Source: a virus
IMG/VR virus record: IMGVR_UViG_3300045988_120055
Span: 53,031 to 117,030 of that record
Length of the DNA: 64,000 nucleotides
Reading direction: 5' to 3' (one strand)
In this document: in pieces, positions 33,117-36,773 of the stretch
Layout of the letters: every line of letters starts with the position of its first letter
Numbering within the stretch: the first letter of the stretch is position 1
Translations under genes and position numbers: made by a program
Notes under the pieces: model-generated
What the model saw: the letters and a program-made list of their open reading frames with translations, nothing else
The model's database searches: none
Told to the model about the DNA's origin: nothing

Positions 33117-33887
33117 TTAATCATCCAACTCCATTCCTGCCTCGATCCACATGCCAGATATAAATTTAGGCATTGGAGCAAGTTTAAATACATTCTTCTC
33201 ATGCATCTCGTCAATGATCTGTCTCACTGCTTCATCTTTACATACTCCAGTTCTCAGATATTCGTCTAACATATCATATGTAAATCCAAGATTATCTTCA
33301 TCTGTCTTACCGCATAATCCATCAGTAGGTGTTTTTTCGATTAACTCTGTTGGAAGTCCCAGAACTCTATCAATTGCTTTAACTTCTGTCACAGTCAGAT
33401 CACTTAATGGACTAAAATCTCCGGCTGAATCTCCATATCTTGTTGCATATCCGACCCAATCTTCAGATAAATTACATGTATTTGCTACTCTTCCATTCAT
33501 ACTCTGTGCAAAAGCATACAATGTAGCCATTCGGATACGAGCAGGTAAATTTGTGGCACTCTGTTTACTCCATTTACCGCCTAATTCATCTCTGATTTCA
33601 TGTTTAATATCTCTGCAAGCATTAAAAATATTAACTGTGTAATGTTCAATTCCTAGATGATCACATAGCATCTGAGAATACTCAATATCACTCTGCACAC
33701 CCTGTGGCATCATAATTCCAATAACTCGATCTTTACCTAGTGCTTCGACACATAAGGCAGCGACAACTGATGAATCTTTACCGCCTGAAATTCCTACAAC
33801 GGCATTACACCATCTTCCATTAACTTTAAACCAATCTCTAATCCACTGTACTAATCTGTCTTTGGTTTCTGCTGCATTAAAACTCAT
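33117..33887 (-). CDS. nadE: NH3-dependent NAD+ synthetase
   Basis: PP-loop VVGISGGKDSSVVAALC (SGGxDS); length and motif order as in NadE. Confidence 0.75.
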   Translation of the reverse strand: MSFNAAETKDRLVQWIRDWFKVNGRWCNAVVGISGGKDSSVVAALCVEALGKDRVIGIMMPQGVQSDIEYSQMLCDHLGIEHYTVNIFNACRDIKHEIRDELGGKWSKQSATNLPARIRMATLYAFAQSMNGRVANTCNLSEDWVGYATRYGDSAGDFSPLSDLTVTEVKAIDRVLGLPTELIEKTPTDGLCGKTDEDNLGFTYDMLDEYLRTGVCKDEAVRQIIDEMHEKNVFKLAPMPKFISGMWIEAGMELDD

Positions 33888-33904
33888 GTTTTATATCTCC
33901 TCTC

Positions 33905-35374
33905 TTAAAATTCTCCTTCGTTTAACACTCTTCTAATCTCCTGTAATGACTGCTCTTTTACCAATTTGCCATCTCTAAATACTGTCTCAAGCAGATTATT
34001 CATTGGAAGATTTTCTGAAGTATATCCATCTTTAAATGTCAATTTACCGTCTGATCCTGTATAGACATGACATAAACCTCTCTGAGATTTCTTAAATCCG
34101 CCATCTTTTGGATTCTTGAAAATTGGATATGGTTTGCCATCAATCTCACAATACGTTGCTTTAATACAACTGCTAAATGTATCTCTTGTAAATGGTTTTA
34201 AAACTCCATCTTCTTCGATGCACTGGAATGAGAATGATCCAACGCCAAGTGCAGCATTGCTTGCTGCGAATCCATTTTTCTCTAAAATGTCATAAATCTG
34301 CTCACATCTCTGCACTGTAATTGAATCTCCGTAAATTGCTTTTACATGAGGATCTAATACTTTGTATCCTTTACTATTCGTAGTTCCGCCAAATTCTTCC
34401 CATAACTTAAATATCGTTCTGGTTACTACATCTACACAATCTCCTGAATCTCCTCTGACAAGAAAACATCCATTGTGATTCATAATCTCATTTTTAAGTT
34501 TTGGAAGAATATTCTCTACAACATTCCAATAATCATAAGAATCTAACACTGCGGAGAAGCTTGTGTTTGGGTAAATTTCTGTAAGCAATCTTTTAATCAG
34601 AGTCTCTTCATCTCCGTCAATCGCATAATTACTACACATAACCGAATGCTCAGTAGACGGACTACCAAAAGCAACTGGTTCTTTCGTGCAATCACAGTTA
34701 TAATTTCTCTCTAAATATGGAATTGTTGGAACCGTAGCTGTATTTAAGAATGATAAACACCATCCTGCTCCTGCTTTAACCGCAGACTGTAAACATTCTT
34801 CTCCACGAAAATCAAAAGCTCCTAATGCTTTAGCTTTTACAATATCATCATCGCAAGTCATTTCATAAAACTTATTAACGATCTGTCTATATGTATGCCC
34901 GACAGTCGCAGCGATCATCGGATGCCACATTTCTGCTGAAATTAAACTTTCTAATGCCTGTGGTAACCATGCAAAATCTTTGTGAGTATTCTCAATACTA
35001 AACATCGGCACATGCATTGGTACTAAAGTTCCTTCAGGAAGAGCCTTAATCTCAATTGGAAGATAGCCAAGATCATATAAATCTTCGATTTTCTGTAATC
35101 CATATGTACCTTCTCCAAGAGCTGCATCCATTACTGTCTTATAAGTACCAATTGCTTTGTTTCTATATTCAAAGAAAAAATACTCATTAAAATAATCGAC
35201 CAAATACTCTTTAATGAATCCTTGTAATCCAAACATGGCTACTTCATTCCATCGTTTTACTCTGCTCATACGTGGAGTAAAATAAGAAACAGATTTTGTA
35301 ATACCTTTTGGTAACATTTCAGCATGAACTGCTTTATAAAAATCAATTAATAACATTGGATTTGTCTGTTTCAT
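33905..35374 (-). CDS. NAMPT-family phosphoribosyltransferase (nicotinamide phosphoribosyltransferase or the NARP1 Namat-type enzyme)
   Basis: 489 aa; N-terminus LLIDFYKAVHAEMLPKGITKSVSYFTPR matches the NAMPT-family start (D-sYK..H...yp.....vysyf..R). Confidence 0.7.
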   Translation of the reverse strand: MKQTNPMLLIDFYKAVHAEMLPKGITKSVSYFTPRMSRVKRWNEVAMFGLQGFIKEYLVDYFNEYFFFEYRNKAIGTYKTVMDAALGEGTYGLQKIEDLYDLGYLPIEIKALPEGTLVPMHVPMFSIENTHKDFAWLPQALESLISAEMWHPMIAATVGHTYRQIVNKFYEMTCDDDIVKAKALGAFDFRGEECLQSAVKAGAGWCLSFLNTATVPTIPYLERNYNCDCTKEPVAFGSPSTEHSVMCSNYAIDGDEETLIKRLLTEIYPNTSFSAVLDSYDYWNVVENILPKLKNEIMNHNGCFLVRGDSGDCVDVVTRTIFKLWEEFGGTTNSKGYKVLDPHVKAIYGDSITVQRCEQIYDILEKNGFAASNAALGVGSFSFQCIEEDGVLKPFTRDTFSSCIKATYCEIDGKPYPIFKNPKDGGFKKSQRGLCHVYTGSDGKLTFKDGYTSENLPMNNLLETVFRDGKLVKEQSLQEIRRVLNEGEF

Positions 35375-36207
35375 AAATCTAACACCTCAACTTTCTCATG
35401 TTCTTTCGTAAAAATACTACGTGTTGTAAATACTTTTTTAAACAAACTATCTTCCTTTAGTAATTCGCCATCAAGAATTGTGTTTTCACAGTGAGTAACG
35501 TACAAATACATATCTTTACAACCGTATTTGTTTAATTCTTTTGATCCGTAGTAGAATGTGCCACCCTTACTACAAATATCATCAATCATTAGAATTGCTG
35601 TATTCTCATCTAATTTATCTGTATCTCCATGAATCTCAATACCAAGAATTTCTCCTGTCTTCCAATCACGATTTTTAATTCCATAGACAATCGGATAATC
35701 ATCTGATACAAATTCAGAATATCTTTTTAGTGATCCGCTATCTGGAAAATAAATTACAAGATTTCTTGATGACTCTGCTTTAAGGACTTTGCAGCAAGTT
35801 TGTGTGATATATGATGCTCCACGAATTACTTCTACATGATCAATCAATGCAGTAGATACATCGGAATGTGGATCAGTTACAATAACTTGTACAAATCCCA
35901 GACTATTAATAATTTCTGCAAAATATTTTAATGTAAAGCATTCGCTTGGCTCTTTTACTCTGTCAAATCTTGCATTTGGTATATACGGCATCACTAATGC
36001 TTGTTGTAACCACGGAAAATGTTCTTTAATATTTTTAGAAATACACAACAAAGAAAACAACTCTTGATCTGACTCATATAACCATGTGATATACACTGTC
36101 TTGTTTTCTATGATTTCTTGAGATATCACACCTAACGAAAAATCAATTTTTTGCGTTCCATCTGGAAAAGATTCTGGAACAACTGGGACTCCATTAATAC
36201 TAATCAT
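35371..36207 (-). CDS. ribose-phosphate pyrophosphokinase (Prs)-like enzyme; possible ADP-ribose pyrophosphokinase (Adps-type)
   Basis: Prs-like N-domain (FPDGTQKID, VTDPHSD) and PRPP-binding loop ILMIDDICSKGGTF; 4-nt overlap (ATGA) with the NAMPT-family gene. Confidence 0.6.
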   Translation of the reverse strand: MISINGVPVVPESFPDGTQKIDFSLGVISQEIIENKTVYITWLYESDQELFSLLCISKNIKEHFPWLQQALVMPYIPNARFDRVKEPSECFTLKYFAEIINSLGFVQVIVTDPHSDVSTALIDHVEVIRGASYITQTCCKVLKAESSRNLVIYFPDSGSLKRYSEFVSDDYPIVYGIKNRDWKTGEILGIEIHGDTDKLDENTAILMIDDICSKGGTFYYGSKELNKYGCKDMYLYVTHCENTILDGELLKEDSLFKKVFTTRSIFTKEHEKVEVLDL

Positions 36208-36221
36208 TCTTTATTACCCCT

Positions 36222-36773
36222 TTATTCATTAATTACTTCAATTTGACACATTTTCATTGCTTCGAGTGCGTTCTTGTGACTCTCTGGAGTTACACCAGCA
36301 CAGCAGGAAGCATCTACGATAATCTTTGCTTCTGGTAACGCTGCTTTTAATAACATTGCGTTTGAAATTACACAAATATCTGTACAAAGACCGATTAATG
36401 TAATACTTTTAATTATTTCTTTTTGCTCTTTGTGTAATAAACAATAATCAAAAAACAAGTCGGTAGACCCAAAAGACATTTTATGATAGTCATTCAAACC
36501 ATTATATTCCCATCCATTTGTCTGCAAAGCTTGTTGTACGTCTGGATGGAGCTGCCACCCATTGGTACCAAGAAGACAATGTTCTACTGGTAATTTTTCA
36601 CCTTCCTGTGTTGATAGATAATCTTCAAAATGAGTATCATATGTTGTAATAAGACGCCCATCGAACGAATTTATCTTCTCAACAACTTTTGGAACGATCT
36701 CCTGTGCTTCTTTGGTTCCAAGGCTTCCGTCGATGAAGTCATTCTGCATATCGACGACAATTAATATTTTCAT
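36222..36773 (-). CDS. nicotinamidase / isochorismatase-family hydrolase (PncA-like)
   Basis: MKILIVVDMQNDFIDG and catalytic-Cys segment IGLCTDICV. Confidence 0.65.
   Translation of the reverse strand: MKILIVVDMQNDFIDGSLGTKEAQEIVPKVVEKINSFDGRLITTYDTHFEDYLSTQEGEKLPVEHCLLGTNGWQLHPDVQQALQTNGWEYNGLNDYHKMSFGSTDLFFDYCLLHKEQKEIIKSITLIGLCTDICVISNAMLLKAALPEAKIIVDASCCAGVTPESHKNALEAMKMCQIEVINE

Follow-up and report, generated by a model that had tools for sequence, protein, structure and literature searches.

Introduction

Does the four-gene NAD+ cassette lying at positions 33,117 to 36,773 of a 64,000-nucleotide stretch of viral DNA (positions 53,031 to 117,030 of the IMG/VR record IMGVR_UViG_3300045988_120055; this whole stretch is hereafter the window) encode NAD+ reconstitution pathway 1 (NARP1) accompanied by two helper enzymes, or one pathway of four enzymes? 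NAD+ depletion is among the commonest bacterial means of aborting phage infection, and NARP1, with its enzymes Adps and Namat, has been called the most abundant of the phage responses to it. The cassette reads, 5' to 3', PncA, an Adps-like kinase, a Namat-like transferase and NadE. A first-pass annotation had placed four minus-strand genes here, all of which are confirmed as open reading frames (ORFs), and had interpreted them as a NARP1-like pair with NadE and PncA as extras.

The module is better read as one four-enzyme pathway via nicotinate and nicotinic acid adenine dinucleotide (NaAD) than as canonical NARP1 with helpers, since PncA and NadE accompany a Namat that has lost an Asp and has a remodelled base pocket. 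On the sequences compared here, it appears reasonably, if not strongly, probable that the four genes constitute a self-sufficient deamidated route rebuilding NAD+ from the NADase products ADP-ribose (ADPR) and nicotinamide. In such a route PncA would hydrolyze nicotinamide to nicotinate and NH3; the Adps homologue would convert ADPR and ATP into ADP-ribose pyrophosphate (ADPR-PP) and AMP; the Namat variant would join nicotinate and ADPR-PP into NaAD, with release of pyrophosphate; and NadE would produce NAD+ from NaAD, ATP and NH3. The phage cassette would most likely serve to keep NAD+ available in infection, including against NAD+-depleting defences.

Lineage of the kinase and the transferase

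The 278-aa kinase, announced as Prs-like, matches phrog_619 (E=2e-67) and aligns over its full length with SPbetaL1 Adps (36% identity, E=8e-47), while its best match to a canonical phosphoribosyl pyrophosphate (PRPP) synthetase in the PDB reaches only E=5e-12. The curated PRPP-synthetase score is not reached (TIGR01251, 87.7 bits, under the cutoff of 113), and the match to this profile stops at position 285 of 309, the C-terminal module being absent; loss of this alpha11-alpha12 module is a signature of the Adps family (PMC13586617). Adps has a median length of 278 aa in the loci with an altered transferase pocket described below and of 274 aa in those retaining the Asp. Two motifs connect the kinase with the Adps proteins of Asp-type loci, namely the PP-loop DDICSKGGTF, at residue 209, and a hairpin lysine, K178, in KNRDWKTGE, their counterparts in SPbetaL1 Adps, whose numbering rather than that of ICP1 served for the comparison, being DDLSSFGGTF and KQRNFHTGE. 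By sequence, the kinase groups with Adps and not with housekeeping PRPP synthetases (PRPS).

The 489-aa transferase, correctly placed in the NAMPT family, matches phrog_448 (E=3.5e-158), PF04095 and NAMPT_N. When compared by sequence with solved structures, it scores 387 bits with Namat (9w5x/9w5w), 313 with HdNadV and 172 with human NAMPT, and its AlphaFold2 (AF2) model (pLDDT 94.6) is found by Foldseek to be closest to the same Namat structures (TM 0.91-0.93, rmsd 1.5-1.9 Å). It is 42% identical to SPbetaL1 Namat, retains the catalytic core (D11, Y13, F187, R190, H243, R307 and D309, which include the counterparts of Namat Asp13', Tyr15', Phe189, Arg192 and Arg306) and keeps the stacking residue of the clamp loop (Arg, Lys or Tyr at its third position) as Arg38, which aligns with SPbetaL1 Arg40. 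Profile scores are 432 bits for NF006629 (PRK09198), over its cutoff of 405, and 24 bits for TIGR01513, against a cutoff of 297. NF006629 carries the NCBI name 'nicotinate phosphoribosyltransferase', and the same name has been given to a 98%-identical Anaerostipes protein; judged by alignment, this name does not stem from a PncB-type relationship, the transferase being of the NAMPT/Namat type.

Since the kinase is nearest to validated Adps and the transferase nearest to the Namat structures, the pair is assigned by these comparisons to the Adps/Namat (NARP1) lineage. The view that sequence cannot separate Adps/Namat from Prs/Nampt proved too pessimistic (387 versus 172 bits, and E=8e-47 versus 5e-12), and the profile and structure comparison that the first-pass annotation had itself suggested shows no clustering with housekeeping PRPP synthetases.

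Remodelling of the base pocket and the clamp

Asp215 of Namat hydrogen-bonds the amide of nicotinamide, and the D215A variant suffers an 8-fold loss of activity (PMC12774641); Asp219 of NAMPT defines nicotinamide specificity (PMC12143786; PMC7096376), and table 2 of PMC4919578, citing Khan et al. 2006, lists its D219S variant as switching substrate affinity. In the window transferase Namat Asp215 is replaced by Ala213 (codon GCT) and Namat Ala242 by Ser240, three residues ahead of the catalytic His243. These are the only differences among the seven nicotinamide-pocket residues of Namat listed in PMC12774641, the other five being unchanged. The pocket argument is one of alignment to published contact lists, the model carrying neither ligand nor side-chain geometry.

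The selectivity clamp is also altered. Its helix signature, GSxPhixPhixPhiTRD, comprises 11 residues with aromatics at positions 3 and 7, and the canonical clamp is required for the use of ADPR-PP but not for that of PRPP, on which Namat keeps activity in vitro (PMC12774641). Where Namat has the 11-aa GSxTYQYNTRD, the window transferase shows a 20-aa region, GSFSFQCIEEDGVLKPFTRD, that departs from the signature: Phe is kept at position 3, position 7 is Cys, and there then follow 9 extra residues, modelled by AF2 as a confident beta-hairpin. The proposed NARP1 layout is thus upheld as regards the Adps/Namat lineage and not as regards a canonical nicotinamide-type Namat, Asp215 being lost and the clamp altered.

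Many Namat-family representatives (P0123-P0270) are 550-1100 aa long, with the family match split into 2-4 stretches that usually break near query residue 318-327, and in several Bacillus phages (including Kirov and Tsamsa) the tblastn match is broken in two. The pattern suggests that the Namat-family gene has a hot spot for insertions, whether of domains, inteins or introns.

Co-occurrence of PncA and NadE with the altered pocket

Related loci, 193 in all, were taken from IMG/VR, GTDB genomes and GenBank phages, and their pocket columns and neighbours within ~6 kb were scored. Column 215 is Ala or Ser and column 242 is Ser in 152 loci, 128 of which contain all four genes, with PncA and NadE each present in most; column 215 is Asp (Glu in one case) and column 242 is Ala in 41 loci, where neither PncA, nor NadE, nor the complete set occurs even once. 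Among the loci scored, the altered pocket was encountered solely together with PncA, NadE or both. PncA and NadE hence travel with the Namat variant that is devoid of the nicotinamide-recognising Asp, and are not the loose extras for which they had been taken. The Adps-like/Namat-like gene pair itself is kept in nearly all related loci, Adps being present in 36 of the 41 Asp-type ones. Complete cassettes span a median of 3.9 kb and, in 122 of the 128, follow the order PncA-Adps-Namat-NadE on one strand, while most of the 24 incomplete altered-pocket loci are interrupted by a contig end, about eight being genuine exceptions.

Columns 215 and 242 covary almost perfectly: of the 150 representatives in a 50%-identity library, 96 are D/A, 32 A/S and 16 S/S. 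When 140 representatives were scanned column by column without bias, 242, 187, 213, 239 and 240 came out, after 215, among the columns that best separate the classes; by a +4 numbering offset, 187 and 213 correspond to H191 and G217 of human NAMPT, and the remaining ligand-contacting residues are invariant across classes. The anionic Asp is gone and Ser and Asn or Lys are gained, as would be expected of a pocket that had come to accept a carboxylate in place of a neutral amide.

In a rough neighbour-joining (NJ) tree, calculated with the diagnostic columns excluded, all 45 altered-pocket representatives form one clade, nested among Asp-type Namats beside the SPbetaL1 group. Its basal members satisfy the canonical 11-aa clamp signature (GSYTYQYVTRD), the insertion having arisen later. 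Identity within the clade goes down to 32% for Namat, ~34% for Adps and ~41% for PncA; the transferase of Phage Phass-1, 32% identical to that of the window, has the Ala/Ser pocket and is accompanied by all four genes, and altered pocket and complete gene set also come together in the distant representatives P0143, P0146, P0154 and P0182, this comparison leaving out P0152 for its short flanks. An explanation of the covariation by many independent events was rejected, given that the altered-pocket proteins make up a single NJ clade.

Identities inside the cassette are uneven: where a phage contig matches the window's Namat at 94-99% identity (L003-L031, L062, L068 and L072), its PncA is often only 64-67% and its Adps 72-97% identical, suggesting allele shuffling by mosaic recombination inside the cassette.

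The flanking enzymes PncA and NadE

The 183-aa protein encoded by the first gene, proposed to be a PncA-type nicotinamidase and sustained as such, has the isochorismatase fold (PF00857, E=5e-21), and of its six best matches in the PDB, five bear the name nicotinamidase or pyrazinamidase (1ILW, 3PL1, 29IV, 3O90 and 2WT9). Residues D8, K98 and C134 are present, as are D46, H48 and H65, and nicotinamidase alignments point to the former as the putative catalytic triad and to the latter as the probable metal ligands. In the P. horikoshii nicotinamidase 1ILW, D/H residues occupy the positions of these last three, and none of 121 unique cassette PncA homologues departs from D8 and K98. A non-nicotinamidase hydrolase was rejected on the active-site and metal-ligand residues together with the nicotinamidase best matches.

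NadE (PF02540, E=4e-57; TIGR00552, 190 bits, cutoff 64) contains, as had been noted, a PP-loop of the SGGxDS type, here SGGKDS. Its best PDB matches are NH3-dependent NAD synthetases, among them 3FIU, which we take to be the Francisella enzyme preferring nicotinic acid mononucleotide (NaMN). Some related cassettes have NadE swapped for a 650-aa glutamine-dependent enzyme that combines CN_hydrolase and NAD_synthase domains; the activity is therefore conserved, and not the particular gene. NadE homologues occur in only 43 of 50,697 GenBank phage records, against 2,041 for the NAMPT-family gene.

NadE-like genes of Synechococcus phage Bellamy (L202, 178544-179284) and Pelagibacter phage HTVC008M (L203, 130412-131170) have carbamoyltransferase, methyltransferase or sugar dehydrogenase genes as neighbours, and no NAD genes. 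Being located in sugar-modification clusters, they were rejected as relatives of the module, and these marine myophage proteins may be glycan or nucleotide-sugar amidotransferases misnamed NAD synthetase.

A NrtR-linked counterpart in Clostridia

In 38 loci the cassette has a gene for NrtR (Nudix plus winged-helix) next to it on its own strand, in most cases directly abutting. Every one of these loci is of the altered-pocket type and belongs to a bacterial assembly, the Mogibacterium pumilum chromosome (NZ_CP016199.1, 1145323-1158792; L188 of the group L135-L192) and a Filifactor villosus isolate being among them. The layout is PncA-Adps-Namat-NadE-NrtR in 24 loci and NrtR-PncA-Adps-Namat-NadE in 10, and in one locus (L192) the cassette continues with NADAR, NrtR, PnuC and NadR genes and is flanked by ordinary chromosomal genes. 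No NrtR was found in the window or in any viral locus surveyed.

NrtR is an ADPR-responsive repressor of NAD genes, which ADPR, and NaAD as well, detach from DNA; the operon of Clostridium acetobutylicum is nrtR-pncA-pncB-nadD-nadE (table 1), and nrtR-prs-nadV operons occur in Shewanella and Acinetobacter, their dedicated prs having been left unexplained and read as a PRPP supplier (PMC2330246). Set against the C. acetobutylicum operon, adps and the altered-pocket gene (namat*) take the pncB-nadD slot, that is, the steps from nicotinate to NaAD. Since the same cassette is NrtR-linked in Clostridia and NrtR is absent from viral loci, that of the window is, as far as gene content and similarity tell, a phage-borne, regulator-less copy of an operon of Clostridia (Lachnospiraceae and relatives). 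Identities between the window and bacterial cassettes are 71-79% for Namat, 61-68% for NadE and 42-53% for Adps and PncA. A broader proposal falls only just on the probable side: the altered-pocket Namats would be a new enzyme, a nicotinate ADP-ribose transferase forming NaAD directly from ADPR-PP, at the centre of a fourth, deamidated NAD+ pathway controlled in Clostridia by NrtR and ADPR, and captured without its regulator by their phages as a means of surviving NAD+ depletion.

Weighing of the alternatives

The same chemistry might serve another role, the cassette then being an auxiliary metabolic module for the NAD+ supply of replication or for routine ADPR recycling, and such a role can be entertained although it seems unlikely. 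Bacteria maintain this operon as a regulated housekeeping locus (in L192 also with PnuC and NadR), the phage encodes a NAD-dependent ligase and clusters for NAD biosynthesis are frequent in gut phages (PMC11662467), but the Adps/Namat pair is an experimentally established counter to NAD+-depleting systems (10.1101/2024.02.11.579819; PMC12774641; PMC13586617), and the proposed input of the cassette, ADPR, is the product of NADases. Counter-defence and auxiliary metabolic roles are not mutually exclusive.

That the pair performs canonical NARP1 chemistry, with direct formation of NAD+ from ADPR-PP and nicotinamide, while PncA and NadE boost the Preiss-Handler flux of the host through its PncB and NadD, is quite improbable. 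The core pair is certainly of the Adps/Namat lineage by sequence, the 8-fold loss in D215A Namat leaves some activity (PMC12774641), Ser240 could in principle supply the lost hydrogen bond, and a few loci are without PncA or NadE. Nonetheless, (i) a nicotinamidase heading the same operon would consume the substrate of the transferase, (ii) PncA and NadE stand beside none of the 41 Asp-type Namats, yet beside the altered pocket in most loci, and (iii) several pocket columns change together, which is unexpected if the substrate is unchanged.

Least credible is a PRPP-based Preiss-Handler route, in which the kinase would make PRPP, the transferase NaMN and host NadD NaAD, phage NadE finishing the synthesis. 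Host NadD is, to our knowledge, universal in bacteria, close homologues of the transferase bear the NCBI name cited above, with the NF006629 cutoff passed, and the clamp is altered in the window subclade. Together with the in vitro PRPP activity of Namat (PMC12774641), this would speak for such a route, were it not that the kinase groups with Adps under the PRPS family cutoff, that basal clade members have an intact adenine clamp, that bacterial versions lie beside the ADPR-sensing NrtR, and one also beside a NADAR-domain gene, that no NadD-like gene is seen among the window ORFs scanned, and that phage clusters described in this way do carry nadD (PMC11662467). The Pfam scan covered the 38 larger ORFs of the window, and among them neither a CTP_transf_like/NMNAT match nor Nmnat, NadR, PnuC or NadD was seen; a NadR-seeded search, an indirect probe for NadD, gave matches in only 7 of 194 loci.

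Only the deamidated-route reading dispenses with host enzymes and explains the linkage of four genes to the pocket change. Several points weigh against it. About eight loci with sufficient flanks are without PncA or NadE, at least two of these exceptions being bacterial loci with NrtR and without an adjacent NadE. The association of PncA and NadE with the pocket amounts, according to the rough NJ tree, to one switch followed by long co-retention, and not to repeated events. Where it lists Asp219 mutants of human NAMPT, PMC4919578 gives D219A as a loss of activity and not as a switch, and the PDB titles of 6TA0 and 6TA2 describe the wild-type human enzyme with nicotinate and NaMN; the Asp is therefore no absolute gate, and Ala no proven determinant of nicotinate. 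The altered clamp of the window subclade makes the use of ADPR-PP less secure than in basal members, and keeps the PRPP-based route conceivable there. Finally, the deamidated route costs two ATP versus one, an expense for which any advantage is conjectural; speculatively, it may lie in access to the nicotinate pool or to host-deamidated nicotinamide, in two irreversible steps, or in escape from product inhibition by NAD+.

Cassette organization and phage context

Table 1. Features of the window that bear on NAD+ metabolism
Feature	Position	Strand	Description	Basis
PncA-type nicotinamidase	36222..36773	-	183 aa, first cassette gene	PF00857
Adps-like PRPS-fold pyrophosphokinase	35371..36207	-	278 aa	similarity to SPbetaL1 Adps
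Namat-family transferase, remodelled base pocket	33905..35374	-	489 aa	Namat 9w5x/9w5w
NH3-dependent NAD+ synthetase NadE	33117..33887	-	256 aa, last cassette gene	TIGR00552, PF02540
Ala213 codon GCT	34736..34738	-	at the column of Namat Asp215 / human NAMPT Asp219	
Ser240 codon	34655..34657	-	at the column of Namat Ala242 / human Ala244	
Selectivity-clamp helix region	34181..34240	-	20 aa versus the 11-aa Namat signature	
NAD-dependent DNA ligase LigA	1-648	-	N-terminal 216 aa (partial ORF)	NF005932, 181 bits

The kinase and transferase genes are joined by an ATGA stop/start overlap, which had been correctly noted, and the remaining gaps within the cassette are of 14 and 17 bp; 31 bp lie ahead of PncA, whose ATG is preceded by an AGGAG-like ribosome-binding site, and 2 bp behind NadE. 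A scan for promoter- and terminator-like sites around the cassette gave chance level, with no excess. Because of the overlap, the short gaps and this lack of enrichment, transcription of all four genes as one unit is probable.

Three observations identify the window as phage DNA: all ORFs neighbouring the cassette match PHROG families, genes for replication form a module (Pol III alpha, RecD-like and DnaB-like helicases, DHH proteins), and the transferase gene is present, at 97-99% aa identity, on IMG/VR contigs that measure 90-170 kb. Against GenBank phages, megablast with the 3.7-kb region gave no match, a protein-level search being needed. Homologous proteins listed for the transferase are near-identical (79-99%), a 98%-identical one having been deposited from Anaerostipes sp., and more distant relatives come mainly from Lachnospiraceae and Clostridia assemblies; for these reasons the phage host is probably a gut Lachnospiraceae.

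The ORF at the start of the window, already recognized as a NAD-dependent ligase, is the N-terminus of a NAD-dependent DNA ligase, the phage's own NAD+-consuming replication enzyme, and its KEDG sequence resembles the KxDG motif. The Pol III alpha gene (4251-7415, minus strand) overlaps by 11 bp with a 421-aa LAGLIDADG homing-endonuclease ORF directly upstream (7405-8670, minus strand). About 400 bp downstream of the cassette, with one 110-aa ORF in between, lies a gene for a 486-aa SPFH/flotillin-family protein (31256-32716, minus strand), followed by one for a 244-aa protein with no assigned function (30507-31241, minus strand). Further away, a gene for a 164-aa protein with a PemK/MazF-like toxin domain (43962-44456, minus strand) is situated near those of a metallophosphatase (44905-45669) and a tyrosine integrase (46376-47374).

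The window also encodes a nucleotidyltransferase of the RlaP family, of the RNA repair pathway (21175-22095, minus strand). On a distant phage contig (L196) the NAD cassette is interleaved with genes for a Rnl2-type RNA ligase, a protein of AAA_33, presumably a kinase family, and a poly(A)-polymerase-like protein, these RNA-repair-type genes lying at 3538-4479 and 10634-12889. NAD rebuilding and RNA repair genes may be co-located in counter-defence regions.

Comparison with known systems

Literature linking NARP1 with NadE, PncA or nicotinamidase was not found, within a full-text coverage that is incomplete and may have passed over an earlier mention, and neither the original NARP preprint nor the Namat structure paper mentions nicotinate, NaAD, PncA or NadE. 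The aRES preprint deals with a different operon extension, a Macro-domain phosphatase (10.64898/2026.01.28.702374), and a survey of gut jumbo phages treats NAD gene clusters at annotation level only. If the deamidated route is real, nicotinate + ADPR-PP -> NaAD would be a new NAD+ reaction, NARP1-type pathways would fall into an amidated and a deamidated form, distinguishable by sequence (columns 215 and 242 and neighbour genes), a widespread, misannotated operon of gut Clostridia would acquire a function, and there would be a bearing on the 2008 puzzle of a dedicated prs paralogue in NrtR-controlled NAD operons.

The Preiss-Handler pathway (PncA-PncB-NadD-NadE) shares PncA and NadE with the cassette, in which a PncB-type nicotinate phosphoribosyltransferase and NadD were not seen among the ORFs scanned. 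NARP2 (Nampt and Nmnat) and NARP3 (PnuC and a NadR-like protein; PMC13464706) are likewise phage routes restoring NAD+ but, unlike the cassette, they use PRPP and nicotinamide mononucleotide (NMN) or imported nicotinamide riboside. The NrtR operon of C. acetobutylicum has the same pncA ... nadE frame, and that of Shewanella a dedicated prs paralogue adjoining a nadV-like gene; the combination pncA-adps-namat*-nadE is absent from the operon table in PMC2330246, and its phage copies have no NrtR. Engineered Asp219 mutants of human NAMPT affect the same column, where Ser occurs naturally in part of the altered-pocket clade; they act on PRPP, however, and D219A is listed as inactive, whereas Ala is the commonest natural residue of the clade and is always accompanied by Ser242.

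Phass-1 (OQ749652.1, L201, 96860-101298), a complete gut phage genome, has the same four genes in the same order, annotated as nicotinamidase, ribose-phosphate pyrophosphokinase and nicotinamide phosphoribosyltransferase, with NadE hypothetical and no pathway interpretation. Its transferase is like that of the window in having Ala215/Ser242, but is only 32% identical to it and retains the canonical 11-aa clamp. Phass-1 uses genetic code 15, has a 139-aa hypothetical ORF between Namat and NadE, and shows, next to the module, a large array of tRNAs with a suppressor tRNA among them.

Among the closest known systems is NARP1 itself (Bacillus phage SPbetaL1, Vibrio phage ICP1 and Bas63). Like the cassette, it has a PRPS-like gene next to, and translationally coupled with, a NAMPT-like one, and the two agree in the fold, the catalytic core, the clamp-loop (SCL) arginine, the Adps length and the type of PP-loop. 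Extended NARP1 operons with the Macro-domain phosphatase Adpp (10.64898/2026.01.28.702374) are a precedent for the gain of substrate-widening enzymes; Adpp acts on the ADPR side, converting ADPR-1''-phosphate to ADPR, while the additions in the cassette concern the pyridine side, its core transferase being altered as well. In contrast to NARP1, the cassette shows Ala for Asp215 and Ser for Ala242, changes in columns 187, 213 and 239, and a 9-aa hairpin in the clamp; its operon adds PncA and NadE, neither of which occurs in any of the 41 Asp-type loci sampled, and its transferase is predicted to deliver NaAD where that of NARP1 delivers NAD+.

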